64,000 nt of DNA, taken from positions 4,640,001 through 4,704,000 of the forward strand of contig CBDCJO010000002.1 of the NCBI GenBank assembly GCA_965217865.1, written 5' to 3'. A program made the translations under genes and the position numbers. The DNA is from Candidatus Latescibacterota bacterium. GTDB lineage: Bacteria; Latescibacterota; UBA2968; SICM01. A model generated the notes under the pieces. It ran no database searches, was not told where the DNA came from, and saw only the letters and a program-made list of their open reading frames with translations. Position 1 is the stretch's first letter, and the number at the start of each line of letters is the position of its first letter. This document shows, one piece after another, positions 559 to 53,901 of this stretch.

Positions 559-1083
559 ATGGGGGCGATGGTTCTGGAGCAGCGTGACTGGAATCAGCGT
601 GATTATGTGCACTTCATTGGCGTTTCGTCGAATGTGGTGATCACCATCGGGATTCCGGAAAAATATCTGGGTGTCCAGGCCAGCCAGCTCCGGGAGAAGT
701 TTTCACCCAATGTGGTGGATTACGTTTCCCTTCCCGATCGTCAGACGGTCACGGTGGAGCAGTCGCCCTCCGAGAAACTGGATCTTCACGATGTCGTGAC
801 CTGCAACAAGTGCGGGGAGAAAATCCCTTACGACGGTTATTTCCAGTACTGCGTCCGTTGTGGAGATAACCTGGATACGATCATCAGGGTCTGTCAGTCC
901 TGCAACAACAAGACGGCTTATCATCCGGCATTTCGATTCTGCCCGATCTGCGGAGGCGCTCTAATTCCCAATCTCTTCGAGGGGCCGCCGCTGACTGAGC
1001 TCGATCCCAACGGATTGATCTGGGGCGTTCCACTCAAGGATGAATCTCTGGAGGGGGAAGAGGGGGAAAGGGAGGAGCCGTAA
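559..1083 (+). CDS. Double zinc-ribbon protein; true start may be ATG 451, interrupted by an in-frame TAG at 505-507
   Basis: Four CxxC motifs (CNKC, CVRC, CQSC, CPIC) and an acidic tail; the same frame extends upstream to ATG 451, which has an AAGGA RBS. Confidence 0.7.
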   Translation: MGAMVLEQRDWNQRDYVHFIGVSSNVVITIGIPEKYLGVQASQLREKFSPNVVDYVSLPDRQTVTVEQSPSEKLDLHDVVTCNKCGEKIPYDGYFQYCVRCGDNLDTIIRVCQSCNNKTAYHPAFRFCPICGGALIPNLFEGPPLTELDPNGLIWGVPLKDESLEGEEGEREEP

Positions 1084-1193
1084 AACGGAAAGGCCTTGGA
1101 TCGGAAAAGCCGGGGTTCGTGATTCGTGGATAGGGGATCGGAAAACCCGAAATAACCTTTGACAATTTATCCAATAATTCGCATCGATCATTA

Positions 1194-1400
1194 ACGAATC
1201 ACGAATCACGAATCACGAATCACGAATCACGAATCACGAATCACGAATCACGAATCACGAATCACGAATCACGAATCACGAATCACGAATCACGAATCAC
1301 GAATCACGAATCACGAATCACGAATCACGAATCACGAATCACGAATCACGAATCACGAATCACGAATCACGAATCACGAATCACGAATCACGAATCACGA
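1194..1400. repeat. Perfect tandem heptamer array (ACGAATC)x29.6, copy 1
   Basis: Uninterrupted 7-mer repeat from 1194 to 1400, ending 6 nt from the modC stop codon. Confidence 0.98.
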
Positions 1401-1406
1401 TTTTTT

Positions 1407-2486
1407 CTATTCAACCTCCGGTCCGATGCGAATCGAATGCGTTTTGATTAAACATGATATCGTCTGGTTTACCTCCAGTCCCAGGTCCTCGATCGCCTCC
1501 GGGGTTATCTTTACCGCCAATCGTTTTCCCACATCCACGTAAATCAGCCCCCTTCCCTCCACTTTAGACACTTCCAAAACGCGTCCTTCCAGGGTATTCC
1601 GCACGCTCAACCCCGATGGTACCTCCCGTGAGAGAATGATGTCGTCCGCACGGATGCCGATGAAGATCTTACCCCCGGGTGGACGGTCGCAGTATGGGAT
1701 TTTCAGATTCTGTCCGGCGAAACGAGCGATGCTGACCCCCCCGGTCGCATCTCCGGATATGACTTCCACGGGAAGGACGTTCTCGAACCCGTGGGCTTCC
1801 ACTAAGGGCAGTATGTCCGGGTGGTGAGCGATGTCGAAGAAATCCCCGTGGGCAACCATCTTTCCCTCTTTCAGAACGATGACCTGTCCCGTCAACTCCA
1901 GGATTTCCGCTACGGAGTGGCTGACGTAGAGGACGGGAATACCCAGGTCCGACCGGATGTGGCGGAGGTAGGGTATGATGCGGTCTTTCAAACCCTGATC
2001 CAGGGAGGCCAAAGGTTCGTCCATTAACAACAGACGCGGGGAGGTCAGGAGCGCCCTGCCCATGGCGACACGCTGTCGCTCTCCCACGGAGAGGCTACCC
2101 GAACTTCTATTCAGAAGCGAGCGGAGCTGAAGCAGGTCGACGATCCGGTTGATTTCAAATCGTCGGTTGTCCGGTTTCTGGAGGTGGTATCCGTATCGGA
2201 GGTTCTTTTCGACAGTCAGGTGTGGGAAGAGGAGGTCATCCTGAAAAACATACCCGATCCCTCTTTTCTCGGGGGGAAGATCGATTCCTGATGCTGAAGA
2301 GAAGACAACGTCGTCGTCTATGCGGATTTCCCCCCAGTCCGGTCGGAGGAGTCCGGCTACCAGATCGAGGAGGGTGCTTTTTCCAGAGCCTGACGGTCCG
2401 AAAACCGCGGTCACAGGATAATGGCATACGGCGTCCACGTGGAGAGTGAAATTGGACCGATTGTGTGCCAGCCTGACAGATAGCAT
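1407..2486 (-). CDS. modC: Molybdate ABC transporter ATP-binding protein
   Basis: Walker A GPSGSGKST, LSVGERQR signature, LLMDEP, C-terminal TOBE-like region; adjacent to modB/modA. Confidence 0.93.
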   Translation of the reverse strand: MLSVRLAHNRSNFTLHVDAVCHYPVTAVFGPSGSGKSTLLDLVAGLLRPDWGEIRIDDDVVFSSASGIDLPPEKRGIGYVFQDDLLFPHLTVEKNLRYGYHLQKPDNRRFEINRIVDLLQLRSLLNRSSGSLSVGERQRVAMGRALLTSPRLLLMDEPLASLDQGLKDRIIPYLRHIRSDLGIPVLYVSHSVAEILELTGQVIVLKEGKMVAHGDFFDIAHHPDILPLVEAHGFENVLPVEVISGDATGGVSIARFAGQNLKIPYCDRPPGGKIFIGIRADDIILSREVPSGLSVRNTLEGRVLEVSKVEGRGLIYVDVGKRLAVKITPEAIEDLGLEVNQTISCLIKTHSIRIGPEVE

Positions 2487-2489
2487 CGA

Positions 2490-3176
2490 TTACTTTCTCT
2501 TCGTATAACGGGAGATCCACTCGCCGATCATGAGTGCCCCAAGTGAAAGAGCGATCGAAAACACGGCCAGACGGGCTGCAGCGGTTTCCCCTTCTGGCTG
2601 GTTGAGGTAGGTGAAGATTGCCAGTGGAATGGTTCGCGTCTCTCCGGAGATATTGGAGACGAATGTCATAGTCGCCCCGAATTCCCCCAGGCTTCTTGCA
2701 AAGGTCAGGAGAGAACCGGCCAGGACACCCGGAAAGGCCAGGGGAAGCGTCACTGTGAAGAAAACGCGCAGAGGGCCGGCGCCGAGGGTACGCGCGACTC
2801 GTTCCATCCGGGGATCGATCCCTTCGACGGCCAGACGGACGGCGCGAAGCATCAGCGGAAATCCCACGACTGCCGAGGCCAGTGCGGCCCCCTTCCAGGA
2901 GAATGCGATCTGGAGGCCCAACGAGTCTTCGAGTAGCCTTCCCAGGAACCCCCGCCGGCCGAAGAGGAGCAGGAGGAGATAACCTGTAACGACCGGGGGC
3001 AGGACCAGGGGCAGATGGCACAGTCCGTCGAGGAGGACTTTCCCCCGAAAATCGATCCGGGCGAGAAGCCAACCCAGGAACACACCCGGAGGCAGGCTGA
3101 TCAATACGCAGAAGATCCCGACCCGAACCGAGAGAGCAATGACTTTCCATTCTTCAGGTGTGAGGAGTGACATCAT
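2490..3176 (-). CDS. modB: Molybdate ABC transporter permease
   Basis: LPLVLPPVVTGYLLL and FARSLGEFGAT motifs. Confidence 0.95.
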   Translation of the reverse strand: MMSLLTPEEWKVIALSVRVGIFCVLISLPPGVFLGWLLARIDFRGKVLLDGLCHLPLVLPPVVTGYLLLLLFGRRGFLGRLLEDSLGLQIAFSWKGAALASAVVGFPLMLRAVRLAVEGIDPRMERVARTLGAGPLRVFFTVTLPLAFPGVLAGSLLTFARSLGEFGATMTFVSNISGETRTIPLAIFTYLNQPEGETAAARLAVFSIALSLGALMIGEWISRYTKRK

Positions 3177-3296
3177 AAAGATATTGAGAATTGAAGGTTG
3201 GAGATCGACTTCGGCCCCACCGCCTTCCCGGAATTCAGAATTTAGAATCAGGGAGTCCCTCTACTCCTTTCGACTCCGGACTCGCGACTCCGGATT

Positions 3297-4103
3297 TTAA
3301 TTCTGACTTCTGACTCCGGTATCCTGTTTTAAGAACTCAAACCCTTGCTCTTCAAAAACCTTCCCGGCCTCATCCGATTGAAGCCATTCTATCAACAGGC
3401 GGACGTTTCCTGTATTGCGGTCTTTCACGACAGCCACCGGGTAAACGATCCGGTCGTGAGATTCCGGGCCCAGGGTTGCGATCACGCTTACCTTCGAACT
3501 GATGGCCGCATCCGTGGCATAGATCAACCCCGCGGAACACTCCCCGCGCTCGACGTAAACGAGAGCTGCGCGCACGTCCAGTCCCGGGGCGATCCGTTTC
3601 GAAAGGGGACCCCACCATCCAAACCACCGAAGGGCCTGCTCGGCATAGATTCCGGCCGGAACGTGGGAGGGGTCCCCAATGGCGAGCATGCCCCGAAACG
3701 AGGCAGGAAAGTCGAATCCTTTCCGGGGAACCATCCGGAATTCCTCCCCAACAGGGGCCACGATGACCAGGCCGTTGCCGAGAAGATCGAACCGGGTTCC
3801 CTCCTCGATTCGGCCTTGAGTTTCGAGATAATCCATCCATTCCGGGCTTGCAGAAAAGTAGATGTCGGCCGGGGCCCCATTTTCGATCTGTTTGGCAAGT
3901 GTGGATGAACTGCCGAAGGCGAATTTCAGTTCGAACCCGGCCTGTGCTTCAAACGCCGGGGAGAGATCCTGGAGCACATCCGTCAGGCTTGCGGCTGCGT
4001 AAACCCGCACGGATCGGGCATCGATGTCAAGGGGGAGGATCCATTGGGAGGTGGAGAAGGAGATCAGAACGAGGGTTCGCGTGATGATGGAAAGGTGGCT
4101 CAT
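3297..4103 (-). CDS. modA: Molybdate ABC transporter substrate-binding protein
   Basis: YAAASLTD, GSSSTLAKQIENGAPAD, GDPSHVPAGIYA motifs. Confidence 0.95.
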   Translation of the reverse strand: MSHLSIITRTLVLISFSTSQWILPLDIDARSVRVYAAASLTDVLQDLSPAFEAQAGFELKFAFGSSSTLAKQIENGAPADIYFSASPEWMDYLETQGRIEEGTRFDLLGNGLVIVAPVGEEFRMVPRKGFDFPASFRGMLAIGDPSHVPAGIYAEQALRWFGWWGPLSKRIAPGLDVRAALVYVERGECSAGLIYATDAAISSKVSVIATLGPESHDRIVYPVAVVKDRNTGNVRLLIEWLQSDEAGKVFEEQGFEFLKQDTGVRSQN

Positions 4104-4151
4104 AGAACGGGCAATTATGGAAGTTAGGGGAGCGGAAACGTCGGGAATGAC

Positions 4152-5240
4152 CTATCTCCACGGCACGCTCACGCCCAGTTCGTCCGCCAGATCGGCAAGC
4201 TTCTCCAGATGTTTTTTGTGGATGGGGATGCCCGATTCACCCCAGGCCTGCTTCTTCATCCACTCGATCTCTCCCGGGAGATAGATCCGTTCGACGCCTT
4301 CCGACCTTTTGGACTCCCGTACGGTTCGGATGGTCCGGTCCACTTCTTCGATGAATTCGTCCAGGGAGATGAAGCAAGCGATGTTGATCGCGTAGAAGAA
4401 ATGACTCGCCCTGGCCTGTCCGTGGAACTCCTTCCTGTCCCGATGGCATGTGGAAAGGCCGAAAGGGAGGATACCCCCCATCACGTCCATGATCATCGTC
4501 AGGCAATATCCCTTGACCCCTCCGAAAGGAAAAAGGATGCTCGCTTCGGCTGGGTTGTTTGTCGGGAGGGCATCCTTGTTCAGCGCCCAGTTGTCGGCCA
4601 AGGGGATCCCGTAGAGTTCCATCGTGGTAATCCGCCCCCACGCTGACACTCCGCAGGCCATGTCCAGGACGATCGCAGGCTCCTCCTTCGCGGGGATGGC
4701 ATAGGCCATCGGGTAGTTCCCCAACACACCGGAATTGCCGCCGTAGGGAGCCACCGCGGGGGTGCTGCTGGATACACAGAAACCGATCATCCCGTGTTCC
4801 AAAGTCCGCATTACAAAGTTGGACCCGGCTCCGAAGTGGCTGCTGTTCCGCACACCCACCGCGGCGATACCGGTCTGTCGGGCTTTGTCAACGGCGAGTT
4901 CCATCGCACGGGTTCCTGTCAAGTGCCCGAGCCCACTGCCCCCGTCGACCAGCGCATACGAGGGGCCTTCTTTGACGACCTGAATTTCCGGTTTTGGGTT
5001 CTTACGACCACCCTTTATTTGTGAGATATATGTGGGAAGGAGCCTGGTGCCGTGTGAGAATACCCCCCGAAGATCTGTTTCGACCTGAAGGGCTGACACG
5101 AGGCCTGCATCTTCCGGGGAAAGGCCAACCCTCAGATAGATCTCCACGGCAAGATCCCGCAACTGCTCGGCACGGACAAGCTGTTCATCGGGGCTCGGGA
5201 TTGTGCGAAAGTTCGGATCTGGTGCGGTGTAATCAATCAT
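4152..5240 (-). CDS. Ldh_2 (malate/L-sulfolactate/ureidoglycolate dehydrogenase-type) oxidoreductase
   Basis: DLRGVFSHG, VRNSSHFG, GNYPMAYAIP, LDMA, GGVKGY, IYLPGEIE; start placed at ATG 5240 because the upstream ORF extension runs through repeat DNA. Confidence 0.88.
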   Translation of the reverse strand: MIDYTAPDPNFRTIPSPDEQLVRAEQLRDLAVEIYLRVGLSPEDAGLVSALQVETDLRGVFSHGTRLLPTYISQIKGGRKNPKPEIQVVKEGPSYALVDGGSGLGHLTGTRAMELAVDKARQTGIAAVGVRNSSHFGAGSNFVMRTLEHGMIGFCVSSSTPAVAPYGGNSGVLGNYPMAYAIPAKEEPAIVLDMACGVSAWGRITTMELYGIPLADNWALNKDALPTNNPAEASILFPFGGVKGYCLTMIMDVMGGILPFGLSTCHRDRKEFHGQARASHFFYAINIACFISLDEFIEEVDRTIRTVRESKRSEGVERIYLPGEIEWMKKQAWGESGIPIHKKHLEKLADLADELGVSVPWR

Positions 5241-5413
5241 AACGTGAAAAGGAAAGGGTGAAAAAAGCCGTGGATCGTGGTTCGTGACTCGGGGATCGGA
5301 AAGGCCGTCGATCGTGGATCGTGATTCGAGGATCGAGGATAGGAAAGGCCAATGATCCGAATCCTTCAAAAAAACTTTGACTATTCGTCAAATAATTCGC
5401 ATAGGCGTCATTA

Positions 5414-5673
5414 ACGAATCACGAATCACGAATCACGAATCACGAATCACGAATCACGAATCACGAATCACGAATCACGAATCACGAATCACGAATCACG
5501 AATCACGAATCACGAATCACGAATCACGAATCACGAATCACGAATCACGAATCACGAATCACGAATCACGAATCACGAATCACGAATCACGAATCACGAA
5601 TCACGAATCACGAATCACGAATCACGAATCACGAATCACGAATCACGAATCACGAATCACGAATCACGAATCA
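5414..5673. repeat. Perfect tandem heptamer array (ACGAATC)x37, copy 2
   Basis: Uninterrupted 7-mer repeat; its end supplies the rsgA TGA stop (5671-5673, minus strand). Confidence 0.98.
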
Positions 5674-6654
5674 TGGCCTTTGCCTGATGTTCCGATAACT
5701 CGTGTGCCTGCTCTGATCAACCTGACCCGAAGACACCGCCGCCTTCACGGCACAACCCGGTTCCTCTTCGTGAACGCAGTCGCGGAACCTGCAGGATCCG
5801 ATCAGGGGCCGCATCTCCGGAAAGAGATGGTGCAACTGATTCACGTCGACGTCCCAAAGGCTCATGTCCCGGAGGCCGGGGGTATCCCCCAACAGGCTGA
5901 TCCCTCCCAGGGTGTAGAGCTCTGCGTGAGTGGTGGTGTGGCGGCCGCGACCGGTGGCCTTGTTGATGGACTTGACCCGGCGGCCCAGGCCAGGCTCCAG
6001 GGTGTTTAAGAGCGTCGTCTTACCGGTGCCGGAAGGCCCCAGGAAAACGGCGACCGTTTTCTGGACGGATGCGCGGACAGAATCCACACCGTCCCCATTC
6101 TCAGCACTGATCAGGAGGATCCGGTACCCGATCTTCTCATACAGGCCGACCAACGGAGCCGTGATGGATGGTTCTACGAGGTCGGTTTTGTTTACGCAGA
6201 TCAGGACGGGGATATCTTGAAGTTCACATATGGCCAAAAACCGATCCAGCATCTCCAGGTTCAGGTCGGGTTCCCGAATTGAGAAGACGAGTACGGCCAG
6301 GTCTACGTTTGCGATGAGGGTCTGTTCGAGGGGACGTTTTCCCGCCGCCCTCCGGGAGAACTTGTTCCGGCGGTTTACGACATGGTAGATCATCCCGGTG
6401 CCGTCACCTACATCATCGAATTTTACGAAGTCTCCCACGGCCACAGGGCTGGTTGAACGAATGCCGCGAACCGCCGTAACACGTTTGCGAATGGAGGATG
6501 TGTCCGCGGTGGAATATTCGATCACTTTTCGCAGTTTGCTGGAAACGGAACAATTGATCAGGGCGTCCCCCGAAGAAACGGTATATCGACCGAGGTGCTC
6601 CTGCATGACACGACCGATGGGATGGCCCGAAAGGGTATCGTCCGGAGTATTCAT
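5671..6654 (-). CDS. rsgA: Ribosome small subunit-dependent GTPase A
   Basis: Circularly permuted GTPase motifs NKTD, GPSGTGKTT, GRHTTT, DTPG and zinc site CRFRDCVHEEEPGC. Confidence 0.95.
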   Translation of the reverse strand: MNTPDDTLSGHPIGRVMQEHLGRYTVSSGDALINCSVSSKLRKVIEYSTADTSSIRKRVTAVRGIRSTSPVAVGDFVKFDDVGDGTGMIYHVVNRRNKFSRRAAGKRPLEQTLIANVDLAVLVFSIREPDLNLEMLDRFLAICELQDIPVLICVNKTDLVEPSITAPLVGLYEKIGYRILLISAENGDGVDSVRASVQKTVAVFLGPSGTGKTTLLNTLEPGLGRRVKSINKATGRGRHTTTHAELYTLGGISLLGDTPGLRDMSLWDVDVNQLHHLFPEMRPLIGSCRFRDCVHEEEPGCAVKAAVSSGQVDQSRHTSYRNIRQRP

Positions 6655-6854
6655 TAGAAGGGATATGCAAAATGAAAAATGCAAATTGTAAACTTCAAAT
6701 TTACCGCGCCCAGCTCCCTCAAAGTTACAAAAACCGCGGTTTCAATTTGAGATTTATAATTTGCACTGAAATACTTTTAGTTTGACTCCGGGTCTCCCAA
6801 CTCCGGGACTTGCATTTCTGGATTCGGACTCATGTCTCCTGTGTTCTGCTTTTG

Positions 6855-7940: not shown

Positions 7941-8361
7941 GGAAGAAAATGAAAAATGGAAAGTGAAAAATGTAAATTTTAATTTAGGGACTTCAATTAT
8001 CCCGGGTGAATCAAGGTAGAGGATATATCTGGTGTGGGGATTTGTCAAGGCTAATTCGATTGGCCTGTAGCGGCCCCAGGCCTCCAGCCCCTTCCTCACT
8101 TGTGTTTTCCCATAGGTGATGTTATCTTTATCCGAAATTCAAGGCCCAATTCCGAATCGATCATCAGCCAGTTGAGGTTCATTTTCGATGGCACACCAGA
8201 CAGACGTTTATAGGCGGATTCAGACCTTAATTGCACAGAGCAGTGCGTGGTTTTGGACTGGTGCGTGACCACGGAACTGGAACGCACAGGGCTTTAAGAC
8301 CACCACGTCAGCGATAAGAGCCTCTGGGGCACCTGGATTTGAGGAAACGGCAGGGAAAATA

Positions 8362-9132
8362 ATGAAAAGGGAGATGCAGGGGTCAGGCGTTAGAATTCAG
8401 AATGAAAGACACTTGATTTGGATCTCCTCCTGGTTCCGGACTCCTGGATTCTTGATTCCCACGCTTTTATTTTTCCTGCCTTCGATCGCATCCTCCCAGG
8501 TGATCGACGTCCTCCCGCAGGCCACCGGAGGAGATCTGGAGGGTGTGTGGGTCGCCGACTCTTCCGTTGTTCGGGTTTACGTCCCTCCGGATCTTCCGGA
8601 CCTCAATCTTGTCTTTTCCGGGATGGTCATCGGGCGGTTTACGGTGAACCCCGATAGTACCTATTTCGCTAACTACACCGTTGAAGGTAGCGGTTCAATC
8701 GATCTCCTGGGCAGGAGGTCGTTCGATCTCAACGGCGTGTCTGCGGCGGCCGGACGTTATTCGATCCTCGGGACCGATGTCATGGTTACGGGTTTGGTTG
8801 ATTCCAAATCCGTGGATACCGTGGGCTACAGCGTGGCCGGTGATTCTCTGATGCTCCTGCTTTCATTTCGCGAGTCCTTGCTCGTAAAATTCGGATACAA
8901 TTTCATTCTTCTTCTCCCGTTCAAGAAGACGTCCGTGACGGCCGGTTCTGCGGATTTCGACTCAAACGGACGCGTCGATTTGGATGATTTTTTCGTCTTT
9001 GCAGCGAGCTTCGGCACGGATCGGGACAGCCCGGACTTCGATCTGCGGTTCGACATGAACTCCGATGGCTCGATCGACTTCAATGATTTCTTCATATTCG
9101 CGGAACAGTTTGGACAAGCGAGTGAAACGTGA
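8362..9132 (+). CDS. Secreted protein with C-terminal paired EF-hand/dockerin-like repeats (start uncertain)
   Basis: Hydrophobic signal-like stretch; ADFDSNGRVDLDDFFVF and FDMNSDGSIDFNDFFIF. Confidence 0.75.
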   Translation: MKREMQGSGVRIQNERHLIWISSWFRTPGFLIPTLLFFLPSIASSQVIDVLPQATGGDLEGVWVADSSVVRVYVPPDLPDLNLVFSGMVIGRFTVNPDSTYFANYTVEGSGSIDLLGRRSFDLNGVSAAAGRYSILGTDVMVTGLVDSKSVDTVGYSVAGDSLMLLLSFRESLLVKFGYNFILLLPFKKTSVTAGSADFDSNGRVDLDDFFVFAASFGTDRDSPDFDLRFDMNSDGSIDFNDFFIFAEQFGQASET

Positions 9133-9195
9133 AACGGCAAACGTGAAAAAGGCAGACTGACCTACGAACTCCCCTCCCAAAGAAATATTATCCCT

Positions 9196-12778: not shown

Positions 12779-14119
12779 TTGAAGGGTCTTTTGCAGTTGC
12801 TGGAAGATCGGGAGAAGATCGGCAATCCCCTGCGGGTCGGCCTGATCGGGGCGGGAAAATTCGGATCCATGTTTCTGAGCCAGGCCAGGCGGGTGCCAGG
12901 CCTTCACGTGATGGGGATCGCGGATCTTTCCCTTGAAAAAGCCCGAGAATCGCTCCTGCGGATTGGATGGCAGCAGGAACAATTTTCGGCAAAGGGCTTC
13001 GACCGGGCGCTCAAAACCGGGTCCACCTGTCTGACTGATGACAGCAGTGCCCTGATCAAGGCGGAAGGGTTGGATGTCCTGGTGGAGGCCACGGGCGACC
13101 CTGCCGCAGGAATCCGCCACGCCCTGGCGGCATTTGAATCGGGGAAGCACGTCGTCCAGGTCAGCGTTGAGGCGGACGCGCTGGCAGGATCTCTCCTTGC
13201 CCGAAAGGCTGAAGCCGCGGGCGTGGTCTACAGTATGGCCTACGGTGATCAGCCTGCCTTGATTTGCGAACTGGTCGAGTGGGCCCGCGTCAACGGTTTT
13301 GAGGTCGTGTGCGCGGGTAAGGGCACCAAGTACCTCCCGATCTACAACAGGTCAACACCCGAAAAGGTCTGGGAGCATTATGGCTTCGACAGCGAGGCTG
13401 CCGCAAAGGGGGGGTTAAACCCAAAGATGTTCAACTCGTTTCTGGACGGGACCAAGTCCGCGATTGAAATGGCCGCCGTGGCCAACGCAACGGACCTGGT
13501 TCCCCAGTCCGATGGTTTGGGCTTTCCTCCGTGCAGTGCCAAAGACCTTCCGAACGTCTGCCGGCCTGAAGCAGAAGGCGGCCGGCTTTCGCACAAAGGG
13601 ACGGTCGAGGTGGTGTCCTGCCTGGATCGGGATGGACGCCCGGTCGAACCGGACTTTCGCTGGGGGGTCTATGTGACCTTCGAAGCCCCGAGCGAATATG
13701 TCAAACGCTGCTTTGTCGAATATGGGATGAACACAGATACGACAGGACGCTATGCGGCCATGTACAGACCCTATCACATTGTGGGTCTAGAATTGACTTT
13801 CGGCATCCTTAAAGTGGGTCTACGCGGCGAGGCCACAGGTACGCCTACAGGATTCATTGCGGATGTTGTCGCCCGGGCGAAGCGGGATTTACAGGCCGGG
13901 GAGGTCCTCGACGGGGAAGGCGGGTACAGCGTTTACGGTGTGCTCGCCCGGGCCGAGGAGGCTATGAAGGTTGGAGGGCTGCCGATTGGACTCGCCCGTG
14001 GCGTGAAGTTGAAAAGGGGGATCGTGAAGGATCAGACGGTTCGCTGGTCGGACGTTGAATATGATGAGAAGGATCCCGCGGTGCGATTCCGGAAGGAGAT
14101 GGAAGGGGAAGGGAAATGA
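12779..14119 (+). CDS. Homoserine-dehydrogenase-like NAD(P)-dependent oxidoreductase with C-terminal SAF domain
   Basis: GLIGAGKFG, GDQPALI, NSFLDGTKSAIEMAAVANAT, AKRDLQAGEVLDGEGGY; TTG start after GAGAGG. Confidence 0.85.
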   Translation: MKGLLQLLEDREKIGNPLRVGLIGAGKFGSMFLSQARRVPGLHVMGIADLSLEKARESLLRIGWQQEQFSAKGFDRALKTGSTCLTDDSSALIKAEGLDVLVEATGDPAAGIRHALAAFESGKHVVQVSVEADALAGSLLARKAEAAGVVYSMAYGDQPALICELVEWARVNGFEVVCAGKGTKYLPIYNRSTPEKVWEHYGFDSEAAAKGGLNPKMFNSFLDGTKSAIEMAAVANATDLVPQSDGLGFPPCSAKDLPNVCRPEAEGGRLSHKGTVEVVSCLDRDGRPVEPDFRWGVYVTFEAPSEYVKRCFVEYGMNTDTTGRYAAMYRPYHIVGLELTFGILKVGLRGEATGTPTGFIADVVARAKRDLQAGEVLDGEGGYSVYGVLARAEEAMKVGGLPIGLARGVKLKRGIVKDQTVRWSDVEYDEKDPAVRFRKEMEGEGK

Positions 14120-14197
14120 AAAATGAAAAATAAAAAGTTCAAATTGCAAAATCTAAGGATACAGTGACACAGACGGAACCCGTGTCAGAGCTTAGAC

Positions 14198-16425: not shown

Positions 16426-18057
16426 TTATTTTGAGAACTCCGTTTCCTCCCGTGTCATCATCTCGAGGACAGCAGGCCGACCGGTTTGCGTGACTTCGAG
16501 GCCGCGCCGGATGGCCGGGACGATCTCATCGATTTTTTCGACCCGTTCACTGTACGCCCCGAGCCCTTCGGCGACGGTGGTATAGTCGCCCGACAGGAAC
16601 TTGGTGCCGTATCGCTCTGTGGCCACGGCGAGATATTTTTCGTACCCGCCCATGGCGCCGTTGTTGAGGATTACGGTCAGGATCGGGATCTTCTCCCGGA
16701 CAGCGGTCTCGAAATCCATACCGGCCATTCCGACCGCGGCGTCCCCCATGATGTTGACCACGGTCTTTTCCGGATCAGCCAGCTTCGCTCCCATCGAAAG
16801 GCCGAGGGAGTAGCCGAGTTGGGTGGACTTTCCCCATCCAAGATAGCCTCTCGGAATGATGGATTCGTAGAAGGGAACGGCCTGGTCCCGGGGGTTGCCG
16901 GAATCGTGGGTCACGATTGCCTTCGACCGGTCAAGGGTGTGCATTAGGTCCCAGATCACCCGGTAGGGGTTGAATGGGACTTCGTCAGAGGTGAGTTTGG
17001 GCATCCATGACGCGAGCCATTTGTCTTTGATTGATTTGAGCTCCTGGGTGAAGCCCCCGTGAACGGGGCCTTCGCTTTTGGCCTGATCTCTCATCTCTTC
17101 GATGATCTGTCTGAGGACGAGCCGGGCGTCCCCCAGGATCGCGTGGTCGATCGGGTATTCGTTGTGCAGGTCGAACTCATTAAGGGTCGTTTGAATCAGT
17201 GTCTTCCCGGGTGGGATGGGCGCGGATAAGAGAGATCTGGAAAAGCTGCAGCCGATTCCCAGGATCAGGTCCGCGCTGTCCAAGAAGTGGCTCGCAGGTC
17301 CGGCCAGGGTGTTTGAGACGGTGCCCGCGGAAAGCGGGTGATCCTCGGGAAACGCACTTTTCCCTGCTATGGTTGTGACGACCGGGGCGCCAAGACTTTC
17401 GGCGAATTCTCGAAGTTCCTCCCAGGCGCAGGCGTAGTGGACACCCTGTCCGACGTGAATCAAAGGGGCCTTCGCAGAAAGCAGGGCGCGGACGGCTTCG
17501 GATACATCTTGCGGGTCTCCCGCGGTCCGGACGGGACGTGCAGGCTTATAGTCGAGGTGATCCTCCGGGAAATCCATCAACGCAAGATCCGTAGGGATAC
17601 CGAGCACCACGGGGCCGGGGGGGCCTGATCTCAGGCGGGTGAAGGCCCTGCGCATGAGTTCCGGTATCCGGTCTGGGGTGTTCAACCGGGATGTCCATTT
17701 CGCGACCCCCCGGTAGTGCTGCTCGACATCGAAGTCCGGATGAGTACCCCACATGTCTAAGGAAGACTGCCCGGGGAGAAACAGGATGGGGGAGGAATCG
17801 GCGAAGGCCTGTGCGACGCCCCCGAAGGCGTTTTCGACCCCCGGGCCCGTTTGAACGGTGCAAACCCCGATCCGGCGGCCGTTCGAAACCCTGGAATAGC
17901 CGTCGGCCATGTTTACCAGGGTCCGCTCTGTCCGCGCGAGGATAGGACGGATCCCGCCCCTCGCCGCGGCATCGATCAGTGAATTGTGAGGAAAGCAAAA
18001 CAGGAATTCGACGCCTTCCCGCTTAAGGATCTCGACGATCGCATCGTCTGTATTCAT
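16426..18057 (-). CDS. Thiamine-pyrophosphate-requiring enzyme (acetolactate synthase-like)
   Basis: ERTLVNMADGYSR, GPGVEN, TPP motif GDAA...LNN. Confidence 0.9.
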   Translation of the reverse strand: MNTDDAIVEILKREGVEFLFCFPHNSLIDAAARGGIRPILARTERTLVNMADGYSRVSNGRRIGVCTVQTGPGVENAFGGVAQAFADSSPILFLPGQSSLDMWGTHPDFDVEQHYRGVAKWTSRLNTPDRIPELMRRAFTRLRSGPPGPVVLGIPTDLALMDFPEDHLDYKPARPVRTAGDPQDVSEAVRALLSAKAPLIHVGQGVHYACAWEELREFAESLGAPVVTTIAGKSAFPEDHPLSAGTVSNTLAGPASHFLDSADLILGIGCSFSRSLLSAPIPPGKTLIQTTLNEFDLHNEYPIDHAILGDARLVLRQIIEEMRDQAKSEGPVHGGFTQELKSIKDKWLASWMPKLTSDEVPFNPYRVIWDLMHTLDRSKAIVTHDSGNPRDQAVPFYESIIPRGYLGWGKSTQLGYSLGLSMGAKLADPEKTVVNIMGDAAVGMAGMDFETAVREKIPILTVILNNGAMGGYEKYLAVATERYGTKFLSGDYTTVAEGLGAYSERVEKIDEIVPAIRRGLEVTQTGRPAVLEMMTREETEFSK

Positions 18058-18073
18058 AGGTCCTCAGGATGCT

Positions 18074-18871
18074 TCATTCGGTACCTGCGAAGGATGATGA
18101 TTCACCCAGTCCCTCGCTTCCCATCGCGGAATATCCGCCATCCACGGGAAGTTCAGCGCCAGTGATGAAACTGGCGTCGTCGCTGCACAAGAATAGTATC
18201 GCCCTTGCAATTTCCCTGGGTTCGCCCAGGCGTCTGAGCATGTGATACCGGCCCCAGACGGGTTCCCACTTTTCACGATCCCCGTTGGCGGCCTTCGCCA
18301 CCTCCGGGGTCCATATCCAGCCTGGGCTGACCGCGTTAACGCGGATCCCGTCCGTCGAGAGGTCCAAGGCCTGGCATTTTGTCATGACGAGGATAGCGCC
18401 TTTAGAGGCATTGTAGGTCCATCGTTGAGGCTGTGCAATATGAGCGGAGATGCTGGCCATGTTGACGATGGCCCCGCCACCGGCCGCACGCATGGGTTCG
18501 TGGCAGGCCTGGACCATGTTTGCATAACCCCGCACATTGACCCCGAGGCTTCTCTCCCAATCGGCCGTGGTGACGTCCAACCCCTTTGCGATGAAGCTGA
18601 CCGCATTGTTGACCAGAAAGTCTATCCGGCCGAATTCCGTCGTCACTTCAGATACGGCATCGCGGCAGGCTTCCGCCTCGGAGACGTCAACCTCGAAAAA
18701 GCGGGCTTGAAGGCCCTGGGCCTGCAGGGTCTTCACGGTCTGCTGGCCCCCGACCTGGTTGATGTCGAATATGGCTACGGCCGAGCCTTCTTCCGAAAAT
18801 TCCCGCGCGGTAGCTGCCCCGATCCCGGAGGCTGCCCCGGTCACGATGGCCACGCGTTCAGACCAGTTCAT
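18074..18871 (-). CDS. SDR family oxidoreductase
   Basis: TGAASGIG, NNA, YNASK, VSPG, VDGG. Confidence 0.92.
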   Translation of the reverse strand: MNWSERVAIVTGAASGIGAATAREFSEEGSAVAIFDINQVGGQQTVKTLQAQGLQARFFEVDVSEAEACRDAVSEVTTEFGRIDFLVNNAVSFIAKGLDVTTADWERSLGVNVRGYANMVQACHEPMRAAGGGAIVNMASISAHIAQPQRWTYNASKGAILVMTKCQALDLSTDGIRVNAVSPGWIWTPEVAKAANGDREKWEPVWGRYHMLRRLGEPREIARAILFLCSDDASFITGAELPVDGGYSAMGSEGLGESSSFAGTE

Positions 18872-47505: not shown

Positions 47506-49065
47506 GTGATCCTGGCACAGGATCAAAATACCGATATGATTCCAGAATCAAAAATCCCGAAGCGTCTCCGATTTCTTAAAAATCCTTTCCGCCGGCCTTT
47601 TTTATATATCAAACAACTGCGCAGTAACCCCGAATCCGCGACGTACCTCCTGCCGAGCTTCATCTATCTAAAGGCCATGGGGCTGGTCTATGGGATTGCG
47701 TTCGCCTCTTTCAAAGTCCAGGCACTGGGTCTCATCGGTTCGAGGGGCATCCTGCCGGTTTCGGACTATCTGGAAAGGGTCTACGTGGGGGCCGGGGCAA
47801 AGGGATTCCTGCTGGTACCGACGATATTCTGGCTTCATTCGGACGATTGGTTCATCGGGGCTGTCTGTTTTGCCGGGATCGCCGGGGCAATATGCCTGAT
47901 GCTCGGCGTGGCTCCGAGGCCGATGCTCATCGCTCTATTTGTTCTTTACCTCTCACTCGTGACGGGGGGCCAGAGGTTCACGGCATTCCAGTGGGATGCC
48001 CTTCTCCTGGAGGCGGGATTTCTCGCTATATTTCTATGCCGATCGTCGAAGATATCGATTACCCTGTCCCGGTGGCTCCTCTTCAGGCTGATGTTTCTCT
48101 CCGGGATTGTGAAACTCCTCTCCGGCGATGCGTCCTGGCGAGGACTCACCGCTCTCACCTATCACTATGAAACCCAACCGCTTCCGACTGTGGTGGCGTG
48201 GTACGCCCATCAACTGCCCCTGTGGTTTCATAAAATCTCCGCCTTGTGGATGTTCATTACCGAGCTCATCGTGCCATTCTTTATTTTCGGGGGACGACGT
48301 CTCAAAATGTTTGCCGGGGGGGCGATTGTTTTTCTTCAACTCCTCATTATGCTCACGGGAAATTACACCTTTTTCAACCTCCTCGCAATCGCGCTCTGTG
48401 TGTTCTTGTACGACGACGACTTCTTGAGGTCCGGGCCGATCCGATCGCTTTTTGAGCGGATACAAAAAGGGACGGCCCCCCCTGCTTCTGAAGGTGTGTT
48501 TAAAAAAAGATTGATTCCGGTCGTCGCTCCGGTTATCGTCGCACTCAGTCTGGCTCATATGTGGCAATCCATCTTTCGCACTTCACCCCTGCCGCAGACC
48601 GTGCAGGCTGTCCTTGGAGCCTTTGCCCCGTTTCGGATTGTCAATTCATACGGACTTTTCGCCGTTATGACGACGGTCCGTCCTGAGATTATGGTTGAAG
48701 GATCCCGGGACGGAGAGAAGTGGTCACCTTATGATTTCAGGTACAAACCGGACGAACTTCAGGGATGTCCCCGATGGGTCGCGCCGCACCAGCCCAGGCT
48801 GGATTGGCAGATGTGGTTTGCTGCGTTGAGAACCTATCAAGGCACTCCCTGGTTTGTGAATTTCGTGGGGCGACTCCTTGAAGGCTCGCCCGAAGTCCTG
48901 GGGCTTCTGAAAAACAATCCATTCCCGGATGCTCCGCCAAAATTCATTAGGGCCAGGCTTTATCGTTATGGCTTTACAACCCCAACCGGAGGCACCGGGG
49001 AAACCTGGTGGAAACGGGCGGACATGGGGTTCTACCTTCCCTCCGTAACGCTCACCCCCCCTTAG
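47506..49065 (+). CDS. Lipase maturation factor family membrane protein
   Basis: FQWDALLLEAGF, HYETQPLP, GNYTFFN, APHQPRLDWQMWF. Confidence 0.9.
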   Translation: MILAQDQNTDMIPESKIPKRLRFLKNPFRRPFLYIKQLRSNPESATYLLPSFIYLKAMGLVYGIAFASFKVQALGLIGSRGILPVSDYLERVYVGAGAKGFLLVPTIFWLHSDDWFIGAVCFAGIAGAICLMLGVAPRPMLIALFVLYLSLVTGGQRFTAFQWDALLLEAGFLAIFLCRSSKISITLSRWLLFRLMFLSGIVKLLSGDASWRGLTALTYHYETQPLPTVVAWYAHQLPLWFHKISALWMFITELIVPFFIFGGRRLKMFAGGAIVFLQLLIMLTGNYTFFNLLAIALCVFLYDDDFLRSGPIRSLFERIQKGTAPPASEGVFKKRLIPVVAPVIVALSLAHMWQSIFRTSPLPQTVQAVLGAFAPFRIVNSYGLFAVMTTVRPEIMVEGSRDGEKWSPYDFRYKPDELQGCPRWVAPHQPRLDWQMWFAALRTYQGTPWFVNFVGRLLEGSPEVLGLLKNNPFPDAPPKFIRARLYRYGFTTPTGGTGETWWKRADMGFYLPSVTLTPP

Positions 49066-50591
49066 CAGCCCGTTGAAGAACTACCTTTCAACGCACATAA
49101 ACGGAAAAGACGCCTGGAGTGCGGGTCAGATAAATCAAGGTAAGGAGATTGAGCAGGAGACGCTGATAAGAGGTTAAAAAGGTGACCGAGGGCAGCAAAC
49201 GTGATTGTAGGACGAGCAGTAGACGCTGCAAGGCCTTGGCCAGGTCCTGGAGGGCCTTCGGAGTACCTACGCCCATCACTTTGCGCATGAGCAGAGCCAG
49301 GTTGCAGCCCCCGATGTGGATCAGCAAACGCTTGAGGATATTGCCGCGGTCTCTCAAGTGCAACCTGCGCATGCCACCGGTATCATATGTGTGAGCGATG
49401 GTTCTTTCCACCCGTTCTGCACGACTTCGGCGCAAGGCCTTGCCGCGATCTCCCTTGATCCGGCGTCGATTCGCATATACCGCGGCCTGCTCATCTCGTC
49501 GGCCGTTCCACTTGCGGCGTCCCCGATCCGGTTCTGAAATGTAACTCCGGATGCCGCCTTGCTTCAGACTGGTCAATACATCGTTGCTATGATATCCTTT
49601 GTCCGCAACCACCTCCCGTATACGCTGTCTGTGCAAACGTTTGGCAGCTTTTTCGTCCTTCGCGACCTGCTTGAGATTGAGCGGCGCCTCGAGCAGCGTC
49701 CAGGGCAACGACTCGGTATCTCCTTCATCTGCTCCCGACAACGCCACTGCCACAATGGCATTGGTGTCCAGATCCACCGCGTGCTCCACCTTGTGCGCCA
49801 TGTGCGTGCGACCGTCCTTCATCTTAGCGATCTTGGCATCCGGGTCGTGCGGGTGCTCCCAGTCCTGGTTCGATCCCTTCTTCGGTCGCTTCTTATCGAT
49901 CTTGGACAAGTCCTCGCGGGTAGGCGTTTCAATGCCCGAGGCCTTGGCCAGATTCTCAAGGAATGCCTGGTAGCCTTCACCCGTGTCACGGCGTACAATG
50001 CTGCGCATCGCGGCGTTGGCCTCCAGTGTCGTAGCATCCACGCCCAACGTCTTCCCCTTCACCAGACCCGCTTTGCACAAGACCCTCAGGATCCACTTGA
50101 AAACCGCTTCGTGAACTTCCAAGGGAAGCCGATGCCGGATGCGAGACAGGCTGGAATGATCCGGGGTCTGTTCGTCAAGGGCATACCCCAAAAACCGGCG
50201 CAACGTCAGCGAGTCAGATACACGCCATTCGATCCCACGTTCCGAATCAAGTCCCTCGAAATACCCAATCAAAAGCATCCGAAAATAAACCCCGGGCGGA
50301 ATGCCCTTGCGACCCATATGAGGAGCGTAATACCGCTGGCAAAGCCCCTCGACGAACTCGTCGAAGCCGTTCGCCCCCAATACCTGATTCAGCTTCTCGT
50401 AGAACGGATGACCCGGAGATTTCACCAAAGTGTTCGATGCGATGAACAGGTTTTCCTGTCTCTGTCGTCCTCGTTTTCCCATTGCCATTTGCTCGTCCTC
50501 CCTTCTCAGTTTGAACCTGATATATCATAGGACCAAACCACAAGGAAAGACAACAGTCATCTTGGCATAAACGCACTTTTTCAACAGGCTG
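49066..50591 (-). mobile_element. IS1182/IS5-like DDE insertion sequence, copy A (1526 bp)
   Basis: Terminal IRs CAGCCCGTTGAA / TTCAACAGGCTG flanked on both sides by TTAG. Confidence 0.92.
49088..50488 (-). CDS. DDE transposase (DUF772-type N-terminus)
   Basis: SERGI, TPDHSSLSR, GVDAT, DPDA, VADKGY, R..VER. Confidence 0.92.
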   Translation of the reverse strand: MAMGKRGRQRQENLFIASNTLVKSPGHPFYEKLNQVLGANGFDEFVEGLCQRYYAPHMGRKGIPPGVYFRMLLIGYFEGLDSERGIEWRVSDSLTLRRFLGYALDEQTPDHSSLSRIRHRLPLEVHEAVFKWILRVLCKAGLVKGKTLGVDATTLEANAAMRSIVRRDTGEGYQAFLENLAKASGIETPTREDLSKIDKKRPKKGSNQDWEHPHDPDAKIAKMKDGRTHMAHKVEHAVDLDTNAIVAVALSGADEGDTESLPWTLLEAPLNLKQVAKDEKAAKRLHRQRIREVVADKGYHSNDVLTSLKQGGIRSYISEPDRGRRKWNGRRDEQAAVYANRRRIKGDRGKALRRSRAERVERTIAHTYDTGGMRRLHLRDRGNILKRLLIHIGGCNLALLMRKVMGVGTPKALQDLAKALQRLLLVLQSRLLPSVTFLTSYQRLLLNLLTLIYLTRTPGVFSVYVR

Positions 50592-50598
50592 TTAGGTT

Positions 50599-52327: not shown

Positions 52328-52354
52328 TAAAACTGAACCGCCGTGGGAGGCTAG

Positions 52355-53880
52355 CAGCCTGTTGAAAAAGTGCGTTTATGCCAAGATGACTGTTGTCTTT
52401 CCTTGTGGTTTGGTCCTATGATATATCAGGTTCAAACTGAGAAGGGAGGACGAGCAAATGGCAATGGGAAAACGAGGACGACAGAGACAGGAAAACCTGT
52501 TCATCGCATCGAACACTTTGGTGAAATCTCCGGGTCATCCGTTCTACGAGAAGCTGAATCAGGTATTGGGGGCGAACGGCTTCGACGAGTTCGTCGAGGG
52601 GCTTTGCCAGCGGTATTACGCTCCTCATATGGGTCGCAAGGGCATTCCGCCCGGGGTTTATTTTCGGATGCTTTTGATTGGGTATTTCGAGGGACTTGAT
52701 TCGGAACGTGGGATCGAATGGCGTGTATCTGACTCGCTGACGTTGCGCCGGTTTTTGGGGTATGCCCTTGACGAACAGACCCCGGATCATTCCAGCCTGT
52801 CTCGCATCCGGCATCGGCTTCCCTTGGAAGTTCACGAAGCGGTTTTCAAGTGGATCCTGAGGGTCTTGTGCAAAGCGGGTCTGGTGAAGGGGAAGACGTT
52901 GGGCGTGGATGCTACGACACTGGAGGCCAACGCCGCGATGCGCAGCATTGTACGCCGTGACACGGGTGAAGGCTACCAGGCATTCCTTGAGAATCTGGCC
53001 AAGGCCTCGGGCATTGAAACGCCTACCCGCGAGGACTTGTCCAAGATCGATAAGAAGCGACCGAAGAAGGGATCGAACCAGGACTGGGAGCACCCGCACG
53101 ACCCGGATGCCAAGATCGCTAAGATGAAGGACGGTCGCACGCACATGGCGCACAAGGTGGAGCACGCGGTGGATCTGGACACCAATGCCATTGTGGCAGT
53201 GGCGTTGTCGGGAGCAGATGAAGGAGATACCGAGTCGTTGCCCTGGACGCTGCTCGAGGCGCAGCTCAATCTCAAGCAGGTCGCGAAGGACGAAAAAGCT
53301 GCCAAACGTTTGCACAGACAGCGTATACGGGAGGTGGTTGCGGACAAAGGATATCATAGCAACGATGTATTGACCAGTCTGAAGCAAGGCGGCATCCGGA
53401 GTTACATTTCAGAACCGGATCGGGGACGCCGCAAGTGGAACGGCCGACGAGATGAGCAGGCCGCGGTATATGCGAATCGACGCCGGATCAAGGGAGATCG
53501 CGGCAAGGCCTTGCGCCGAAGTCGTGCAGAACGGGTGGAAAGAACCATCGCTCACACATATGATACCGGTGGCATGCGCAGGTTGCACTTGAGAGACCGC
53601 GGCAATATCCTCAAGCGTTTGCTGATCCACATCGGGGGCTGCAACCTGGCTCTGCTCATGCGCAAAGTGATGGGCGTAGGTACTCCGAAGGCCCTCCAGG
53701 ACCTGGCCAAGGCCTTGCAGCGTCTACTGCTCGTCCTACAATCACGTTTGCTGCCCTCGGTCACCTTTTTAACCTCTTATCAGCGTCTCCTGCTCAATCT
53801 CCTTACCTTGATTTATCTGACCCGCACTCCAGGCGTCTTTTCCGTTTATGTGCGTTGAAAGGTAGTTCTTCAACGGGCTG
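52355..53880 (+). mobile_element. IS1182/IS5-like DDE insertion sequence, copy B (1526 bp), inverted relative to copy A
   Basis: Terminal IRs CAGCCTGTTGAA / TTCAACGGGCTG flanked on both sides by CTAG. Confidence 0.92.
52458..53858 (+). CDS. DDE transposase, copy B
   Basis: Identical to copy A except EAQLN vs EAPLN. Confidence 0.92.
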   Translation: MAMGKRGRQRQENLFIASNTLVKSPGHPFYEKLNQVLGANGFDEFVEGLCQRYYAPHMGRKGIPPGVYFRMLLIGYFEGLDSERGIEWRVSDSLTLRRFLGYALDEQTPDHSSLSRIRHRLPLEVHEAVFKWILRVLCKAGLVKGKTLGVDATTLEANAAMRSIVRRDTGEGYQAFLENLAKASGIETPTREDLSKIDKKRPKKGSNQDWEHPHDPDAKIAKMKDGRTHMAHKVEHAVDLDTNAIVAVALSGADEGDTESLPWTLLEAQLNLKQVAKDEKAAKRLHRQRIREVVADKGYHSNDVLTSLKQGGIRSYISEPDRGRRKWNGRRDEQAAVYANRRRIKGDRGKALRRSRAERVERTIAHTYDTGGMRRLHLRDRGNILKRLLIHIGGCNLALLMRKVMGVGTPKALQDLAKALQRLLLVLQSRLLPSVTFLTSYQRLLLNLLTLIYLTRTPGVFSVYVR

Positions 53881-53901
53881 CTAGGGAGCGGCCGGATGTT
53901 T

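Follow-up and report, generated by a model that had tools for sequence, protein, structure and literature searches.

Between the 3′ end of rsgA and the gene for an Ldh2-family dehydrogenase, both on the minus strand, lies a perfect tandem array of the heptamer ACGAATC, inside the window of 64,000 nt analysed here (contig C2:4640001-4704000). How does such an array arise, and does it serve the genes beside it? The initial annotation had described it as part of a non-coding element present in two copies, in which a palindrome would bind a dimeric protein and the array would supply the rsgA stop codon and insulate against read-through translation. The features of the locus are collected in Table 1.

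Table 1. Features of the two cassette copies in the window and of the genes flanking the array (window positions).
Feature	Position	Strand	Remarks
Copy 1 of the cassette	1087..1400	+	Between convergent genes; arm ~1087-1157, TTGACA 1159-1164, CATCGA 1182-1187, (ACGAATC)x29.6 1194-1400
Ldh2-family (malate/lactate/ureidoglycolate) dehydrogenase	4152..5240	-	Below equivalog cut-offs; downstream of rsgA
Degenerate 'opening' heptamer arm, imperfect reverse complement of the array	5262..5358	+	5′ limit approximate
A-tract directly upstream of the -35-like hexamer	5368..5374	+	Putative UP-element position, from sequence
Palindrome TTTGAC-N5-GTCAAA (tattc spacer)	5376..5392	.	Full 6-bp form private to this copy
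-35-like hexamer TTGACT	5377..5382	+	TTGAC well conserved in 18 aligned cores
-10-position hexamer CATAGG (family consensus CATCGA)	5400..5405	+	17 nt past the -35; degenerate, no T at -7
Perfect (ACGAATC)x37.1 array	5414..5673	+	260 nt; begins in the predicted +1 region
rsgA, ribosome small subunit GTPase	5671..6651	-	TIGR00157 above cut-off; TGA at 5671-5673

The measured length of 37.1 units bears out the 37 perfect units first reported. The array starts 8 nt past the -10-position hexamer, a distance that is 6 nt in most copies. In the arm upstream, the units GTGGATC, GTGGTTC, GTGACTC, GGGGATC and GTGATTC are interspersed with GGAAAGGCC at 5298 and 5342, the alternation with GTGGATC/GTGATTC-type units that had been noticed before. 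Arm and array together are predicted to form a long imperfect hairpin (-80.7 versus -54.1±4.7 kcal/mol for mononucleotide shuffles). A structured RNA was rejected, as arm plus core folded no better than shuffles (z -0.53, 0.08); the array alone was less structured than shuffles (z +4.6), and no Rfam covariance model matched window positions 1000-5800 at E≤1. The plus strand of the array is open in all three frames, and its minus strand carries, as claimed, a stop every 21 nt in each frame. The start of the dehydrogenase gene at 5240 was set from relatives. Other short heptamer arms lie at gene junctions of the window (6657-6770, 7941-7997, 9122-9159 and 14108-14150; AAAATGA/AAAATGC and GTGAAAC types), those at 6657-6770 being an inverted pair that overlaps the region upstream of rsgA.

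The element is far from a two-copy feature. A core profile search gave 36 hits; dropping three weak ones (E above 1) and merging two split pairs, one divided by a 37-nt junction duplication and one by an IS200 insertion, left 31 cored copies in the genome, which with one coreless array make 32 loci. The cassette consists of a degenerate inverse heptamer arm, an A-tract, TTGACN, 17 nt, CAT(C/A)GA, 6 nt and the array. Inspection by eye showed the inverse arm upstream in 29 of the 31 cored copies, and the A-tract region is A-rich in most of the 18 aligned cores. The 21 ACGAATC arrays with at least four units are dispersed and intergenic, in a genome whose most frequent TRF class has period 7 (936 hits). 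The core was found in neither of two same-family genomes, and the core-plus-array pattern had no match in the genome and metagenome collections searched, which possibly lack the genome's own or very near records. Four perfect ACGAATC units occurred in one of 60 relatives, reaching at most 5.7 units without the cassette core. The candidate methylation sites GAATC, GATTC, ATCGAT and GATC are at expectation genome-wide. At C2:776684-776915 a 37-nt tandem duplication of the core end and first array units precedes an 18.9-unit array. Pairs of CGTGGAT...ACGAATC arms also lie in frame inside histidine-kinase genes, at C2:3991027-3991134 and at loci of the same-family genome G001.

Pure-array words in the short contigs of run X1, which may be the source sample, reached a summed contig depth of 17,186-18,101 against 8.27 for flanking unique DNA; the ratio of about 2,100-2,200, which is not a copy number, comes close to the 2,335 pure-array 31-mers in the assembly. 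Array depth was also very high in runs X2, X6 and X10 from other studies. Among the contig sets of these runs we found no contig that spans a long array.

The palindrome is present as described, and in degenerate form in copy 1 (1158-1174). Across the family its full 6-bp form occurs in a single core of 30, which rules it out as a family motif, and its left half makes more sense as a -35 box than as half of a site for a dimeric protein. Partial forms are shared by descent, the 5-bp form in 10 of 30 cores and TTGA-N7-TCAA in 13; perfect inverted repeats of at least 6 bp occur in 9 of 32 upstream stretches versus about 2.3 expected from shuffles, in copies that are related by descent and not independent. 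As to the stop codon, the rsgA TGA does consist of the last three array bases, but historically the stop is ancestral. In both same-family genomes (G001, G002) rsgA ends at the same codon (...ERP*; TGA, TAA) without an ACGAATC array and with the same gene downstream, the adjacent site holding a different inverted heptamer spacer in one and a plain 27-nt spacer in the other. The stop is therefore native, and its creation by the array is ruled out. In four other genes the C-terminus is array-encoded (...RDS*). Gene ends within arrays look like passive tolerance of insertions, not function. Insulation against read-through gains little from the family as a whole, with the stop-bearing strand facing a gene 3′ end in 15 of 32 copies.

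The core resembles a promoter. Native promoters of the genome are canonical, with the consensus TTGACA-17-TAnnnT: of 1,125 gene-upstream TTG(A/C)C sites, 24% have TAnnnT at exactly 17 nt. The TTGAC of the core matches this -35, while the family -10 position, CATCGA, has no T at -7, where that base is almost invariant. The genome does accept C at -12 (CAT at offset 17 is enriched, z 4.7), but A at -7 occurs in 13 of 235 native TTGAC-17-TA sites. The combination CATnGA at spacer 17 was close to zero in the gene-upstream set, ACGAATC copies having been removed beforehand, and the lone such site in a later count of native sites was the cassette copy with a mutant unit described below. Intact core geometry went with longer arrays (one-sided P=0.02, by a crude classifier), some intact copies being short (1.0-1.4 units). 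Seven group 1-3 sigma genes were identified (RpoD/RpoS-like, region 1.2 present, ~270-300 aa, one truncated). On sequence grounds the core is a candidate weak or alternative-sigma promoter with its +1 at the array start.

The arrays start in the same register in all 22 ACGAATC arrays with at least three units, whereas the point at which they stop is variable: ACG or ACGA closes 21 of 32 copies, and the shortest intact ones finish as core-ACGAATCACG. Array lengths span 1 to 38.7 units and differ even behind cores that are identical over 60 nt (32.6 versus 28.4, and 31.6 versus 19.4 units) or 97% identical (1.4 versus 28.6 units). Array length is thus no simple sign of age, and the earlier suggestion that the arrays are younger than the element or continually renewed is upheld, also by one expanded mutant unit: at C2:4522805 the unit ACGCACC is repeated 17.4 times, perfectly and from the same junction, and is followed by a different terminal unit. 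It is the unit adjacent to the core that gets copied, which indicates growth in place and not from one trans template. The coreless array at C1:339735 (12 units) has an unrelated, canonical TTGTTC-17-TATCTT upstream at the same 6-nt distance. Other heptamer runs in the genome were promoter-anchored at 1 of 258 ends and reached at most 9.3 units.

From core to array, 30 of the 32 copies run along the locally G-rich strand (P=2.5e-7). Neither genes (2,800 of 5,419, called with a crude purpose-built caller) nor canonical promoters (301 of 584) are biased towards this strand, and the bias of the copies is independent of the direction of flanking genes, which stand in all four arrangements (13, 10, 5 and 4 copies). 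A sense gene start follows the array in 17 of 32 copies; the copy at 5414-5673 points into the 3′ end of rsgA. The G-rich strand also carries the ribosomal-protein, rpoC and atp genes, which supports reading it as the leading strand. The skew forms a mosaic, however, and the segment with rRNA and dnaA runs counter to it: C2:2.24-2.94 Mb, with dnaA, gyrB and parS at 2.24 Mb and the only 16S gene found at 2.78 Mb on the plus strand, is C-rich on plus, either a recent inversion or a misassembly. With the origin placed at dnaA/parS, 27 of 32 copies are leading and the five lagging ones all have at most 9.4 units (Fisher P=0.022), which is suggestive of shorter arrays on lagging copies; by local skew, length did not differ between the strands (P=0.39, with only two lagging copies).

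Short copies are as strand-biased as long ones. Since all opening-type heptamer families of this genome are leading-biased (runs of GATTGAA of 14-18 nt, 44:4), the cassette orientation may stem from the arm and general replication slippage rather than from the core. Runs of ACGAATC itself favour the other strand at 11-13 nt (6:24), a preference reversed to 21:1 at 19 nt or more. Abundant purine-rich heptamers (GATTGAA, AAAATGG, AATACAG, GGTCAGA, GTGAGAC, CGTGGAT and others) prefer the G-rich strand, more so with increasing run length.

The promoter-then-array geometry is common across phyla. A scan of GTDB for ten perfect heptamer units gave 70 loci in many phyla, 9-10 of which had too little flanking DNA for a given test; eight metagenome loci were left out of the counts because the search pattern itself had fixed their junction. 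A TAnnnT wholly outside the array and ending 1-9 nt before it was present at 29 of 61 GTDB loci (21 of 43 organisms) versus 7 of 60 at the other end. These -10 boxes cluster near the array start, with 35 hits at -9 to -1 versus 15 at -40 to -10, and a full TTG-N16/18-YAnnnT occurred at 17 of 60 loci; the corresponding figures are 1.8% for shifted anchors and 1 of 60 for the opposite end. At 42 of 60 loci the array is followed within 45 nt by the start of a sense gene (18 of 59 at the other end). A -10 box is missing ahead of half of the GTDB arrays.

Among 301 genomes of one Chloroflexota class, the Anaerolineae, a promoter followed by three units matched six genomes, and the inverse-unit control two, with one hit each. 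Three of the six carry 10, 9 and 5 arm-promoter-array cassettes, in which a degenerate arm of the opening type precedes TTGACA-16/17-TAnnnT and an array that is pure within each copy but built from different units in different copies; two single matches were repeat look-alikes. Two of the three multi-copy genomes (G066, G067) are already among the 70 GTDB loci. Gene direction downstream of these cassettes is ambiguous: of 25 rows, 9 have ORFs in both orientations and 10 lie at contig ends. Thermithiobacillus, a Helicobacteraceae MAG and the Anaerolineae have independent multi-copy promoter-plus-heptamer cassettes, each with cores of its own, and one of these hosts is a cultured type strain.

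The closest known parallel is the (ATCTTTC)n repeat of Haemophilus influenzae hmw1A/2A. There, according to the accessible part of the report, the first array base is the mapped transcription start, and change in repeat number needs the promoter and transcription and depends on repeat orientation (PMC12721329). The same text presents hmw as a two-locus adhesin switch, with a hairpin within the transcript whose downstream G-rich pairing arm is cut by RNase III (PMC12721329). The cassette, in contrast, is dispersed in about 31 copies beside unrelated genes, 15 of 32 copies point into gene 3′ ends, its pairing arm lies upstream of the predicted +1, and its copies are co-oriented with the G-rich strand. 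Judged as a sigma70 promoter, the core keeps the -35 and the 17-nt spacing, but its -10 is degenerate; a canonical -10 precedes the array of the coreless copy and arrays in other phyla. The hmw array lies in the 5′ untranslated region of the gene that it controls, whereas a sense gene start follows only the 17 cassette copies counted above. By analogy we propose that the cassette works like the hmw repeat, but not as an hmw-type gene switch.

With its long, perfect, dispersed arrays and inverted arm pairs, the cassette belongs to the intergenic heptameric long SSRs. In the sections available to us, these are described as GGGAATC repeats in Xanthomonas (Rehm 2015, PMC4692102) and TAACTGA repeats in Beggiatoaceae, Cyanobacteria and Bacteroidetes (MacGregor 2015, PMC4679880): dispersed intergenic 7-nt units, often in inverted pairs and often just upstream of start codons, with lengths up to 26-43 units. 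The same sections describe no shared promoter-shaped core or fixed array start (PMC4692102, PMC4679880), and those on Xanthomonas report that GGGAATC repeats favour neither the leading nor the lagging strand (PMC4692102), in contrast to the strand bias of the cassette. A full-text literature search, incomplete in coverage so that a prior description is possible, returned no description of a dispersed arm-promoter-heptamer cassette or of cross-phylum anchoring.

A fixed start, expansion of the core-adjacent unit, co-orientation with the G-rich strand and the same layout in other phyla are thus observed. Taken together they make it somewhat more probable than the opposite that the array lengthens in place, one unit at a time, at the predicted transcription start, with RNA polymerase that engages the core as the probable driver. 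The polymerase would engage this putative weak or alternative-sigma promoter, with +1 at the array start, and the basal ACGAATCACG end (ACG-AATC-ACG, a 3-nt direct repeat) would seed the first 7-nt slip, after which further slips could run away to ~39 units. A slip might occur within the open or initiating complex; alternatively, a co-directional replication fork might run into this complex and resume synthesis from the short transcript. Cores and arms would move between heptamer-lined spacers by homology-driven exchange, not through a transposase of their own. In all likelihood the cassette is selfish or neutral, and its overlap with stop codons reflects tolerance rather than purpose.

The main rival to growth at the transcription start is ordinary replication slippage of a heptamer seed beside a passive core. 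The fixed start would then merely reflect common ancestry of the cores, and promoters would stand ahead of arrays in other genomes because 5′ untranslated regions accept them. The rise of strand bias with run length in all abundant heptamer families fits this account, as does the degenerate -10 of the cassette, and polymerase slippage for heptamers was proposed by Mrazek 2007, as cited in the available parts of PMC4692102 and PMC4679880. However, passive slippage sits poorly with other families stopping at 9.3 units when ACGAATC reaches 38.7, with the reversal of the ACGAATC strand preference between 11-13 nt and 19 nt or more, with -10 boxes that peak within 9 nt of the array start, and with a coreless array that shows the same promoter geometry. 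We regard it as possible, at clearly less than even probability. Alternatively, a reverse transcriptase might add the arrays, either by copying an RNA template in trans as telomerase does (DRT10 type) or by leaving a reiterated tail during retrotransposition. This would explain why they are pure, fixed in register and variable at their ends; DRT10 makes tandem-repeat DNA, according to the available portion of PMC12632851, and the genome has three reverse transcriptase genes. Yet its two distinct enzymes score best as UG21 and DRT4, not UG17/DRT10, and the third gene nearly duplicates the second. No array-like run of at least 9 nt lies within 2.5 kb of two of the genes, and an 11-nt match near the third sits inside a neighbouring ORF. 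A single trans template cannot yield the mutant-unit array, and target-site duplications were not found (P=0.24). Such an origin is improbable.

Slightly less probable still is a host regulatory element, in which a dimeric protein would occupy TTTGAC-N5-GTCAAA and the array would insulate against read-through. The TTGA-N7-TCAA form kept in 13 cores, the excess of inverted repeats in copies related by descent, the minus-strand stops in all frames and the four genes ending inside arrays speak for it. They are set against a full palindrome confined to one core, flanking genes that are unrelated and in every arrangement, the ancestral rsgA stop, and a core that was not found in two same-family genomes, as core-plus-array was not found in the genome and metagenome collections. 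Assembly or polishing error as the source of the long perfect arrays is the least credible reading, and very improbable. The 2-contig assembly is flagged as 9.3% contaminated, but array word depth in independent contig sets agrees with its array content, the mutant-unit array and the 37-nt junction duplication are retained in it, and arrays of at least ten units occur at the 70 GTDB loci, complete genomes among them. We take the perfect array to be genuine.

If growth at the transcription start is right, many bacterial 5′ ends would be built-in sites of repeat growth, and cassettes could tune or disturb neighbouring genes. We tentatively raise, as rather doubtful, that selfish promoter cassettes without a transposase form a class found across phyla; they would spread among spacers lined with heptamers, in the direction of replication, and extend their tail at the transcription start through an RNA-dependent step, for example by fork restart from a nascent short transcript. 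For the excess of long heptamer repeats in many bacteria, polymerase slippage is a proposal only in the available parts of PMC4692102 and PMC4679880; were RNA-dependent growth true, that excess would be a product of transcription initiation and not of polymerase slippage alone. New here are the heptamer arrays behind sigma70 -10 boxes across phyla, a recurring layout through which transcription-driven repeat growth would become testable. In this genome the cassette exists in about 30 natural replicates that range from 1 to 39 units, among them one mutant-unit, one IS-split and one coreless promoter copy.

How the cassettes spread was addressed by looking for signs of a mobile element. MITEs and REP-REPIN elements are short, non-coding and multi-copy, with imperfect inverted arms. 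The cassette shares all of this, but is without a target-site duplication (none in 28 copies; mean repeat 1.64 versus 1.41 shuffled, P=0.24, with fuzzy 5′ ends), a conserved core hairpin or an identified cognate transposase. By these tests, and by those on the reverse transcriptases, it does not qualify as a MITE, a REP element or a DRT10 product. No transposase is enclosed by cassette arms in the genome, nor is any other gene specifically (one chance case), and a GxxExxY nuclease was not found in the genome. Comparison with contigs of run X6 hints that arms and cores may be exchanged between spacers, judging from two contigs of this one run. In a contig ~97% identical in the ldh gene, 57 other letters replace 111 of the arm, with eight differences and two gaps over 65 nt of core and array start; at the ftsH-folP copy, another contig aligns from the array start only, and its preceding 142 letters do not align. 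Neither of these two loci (ldh-rsgA, ftsH-folP) showed an empty insertion site.

IS200 was ruled out as an autonomous partner, the IS200 in one core being an independent multi-copy element that inserts after TTCA. An active IS200-type tnpA element with this insertion site lies at C2:5252672-5253280, with ~12 further full copies and many short derivatives, including a family of ~230-nt internal deletions. In the window, positions 49055-50595 recur perfectly in inverted orientation at 52351-53891; these 1,541-nt repeats, with 1,755 nt between them, are probably two copies of an insertion sequence. Heptamer-flanked genes for four-helix-bundle proteins (TIGR02436 / 23S rRNA IVP) in the same genome resemble the cassette in having opening and closing arms around a core, but they enclose an ORF of ~120 aa and use other heptamers, whereas the cassette has no ORF. 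The four genes (C2:3991550-3991912, 852880-853230, 5354420-5354780 and 1734285-1734680) differ in the family of the 6- or 7-mers that make up their inverted arms; two of the genes are broken, and in one case an IS3 separates the gene from its closing arm.
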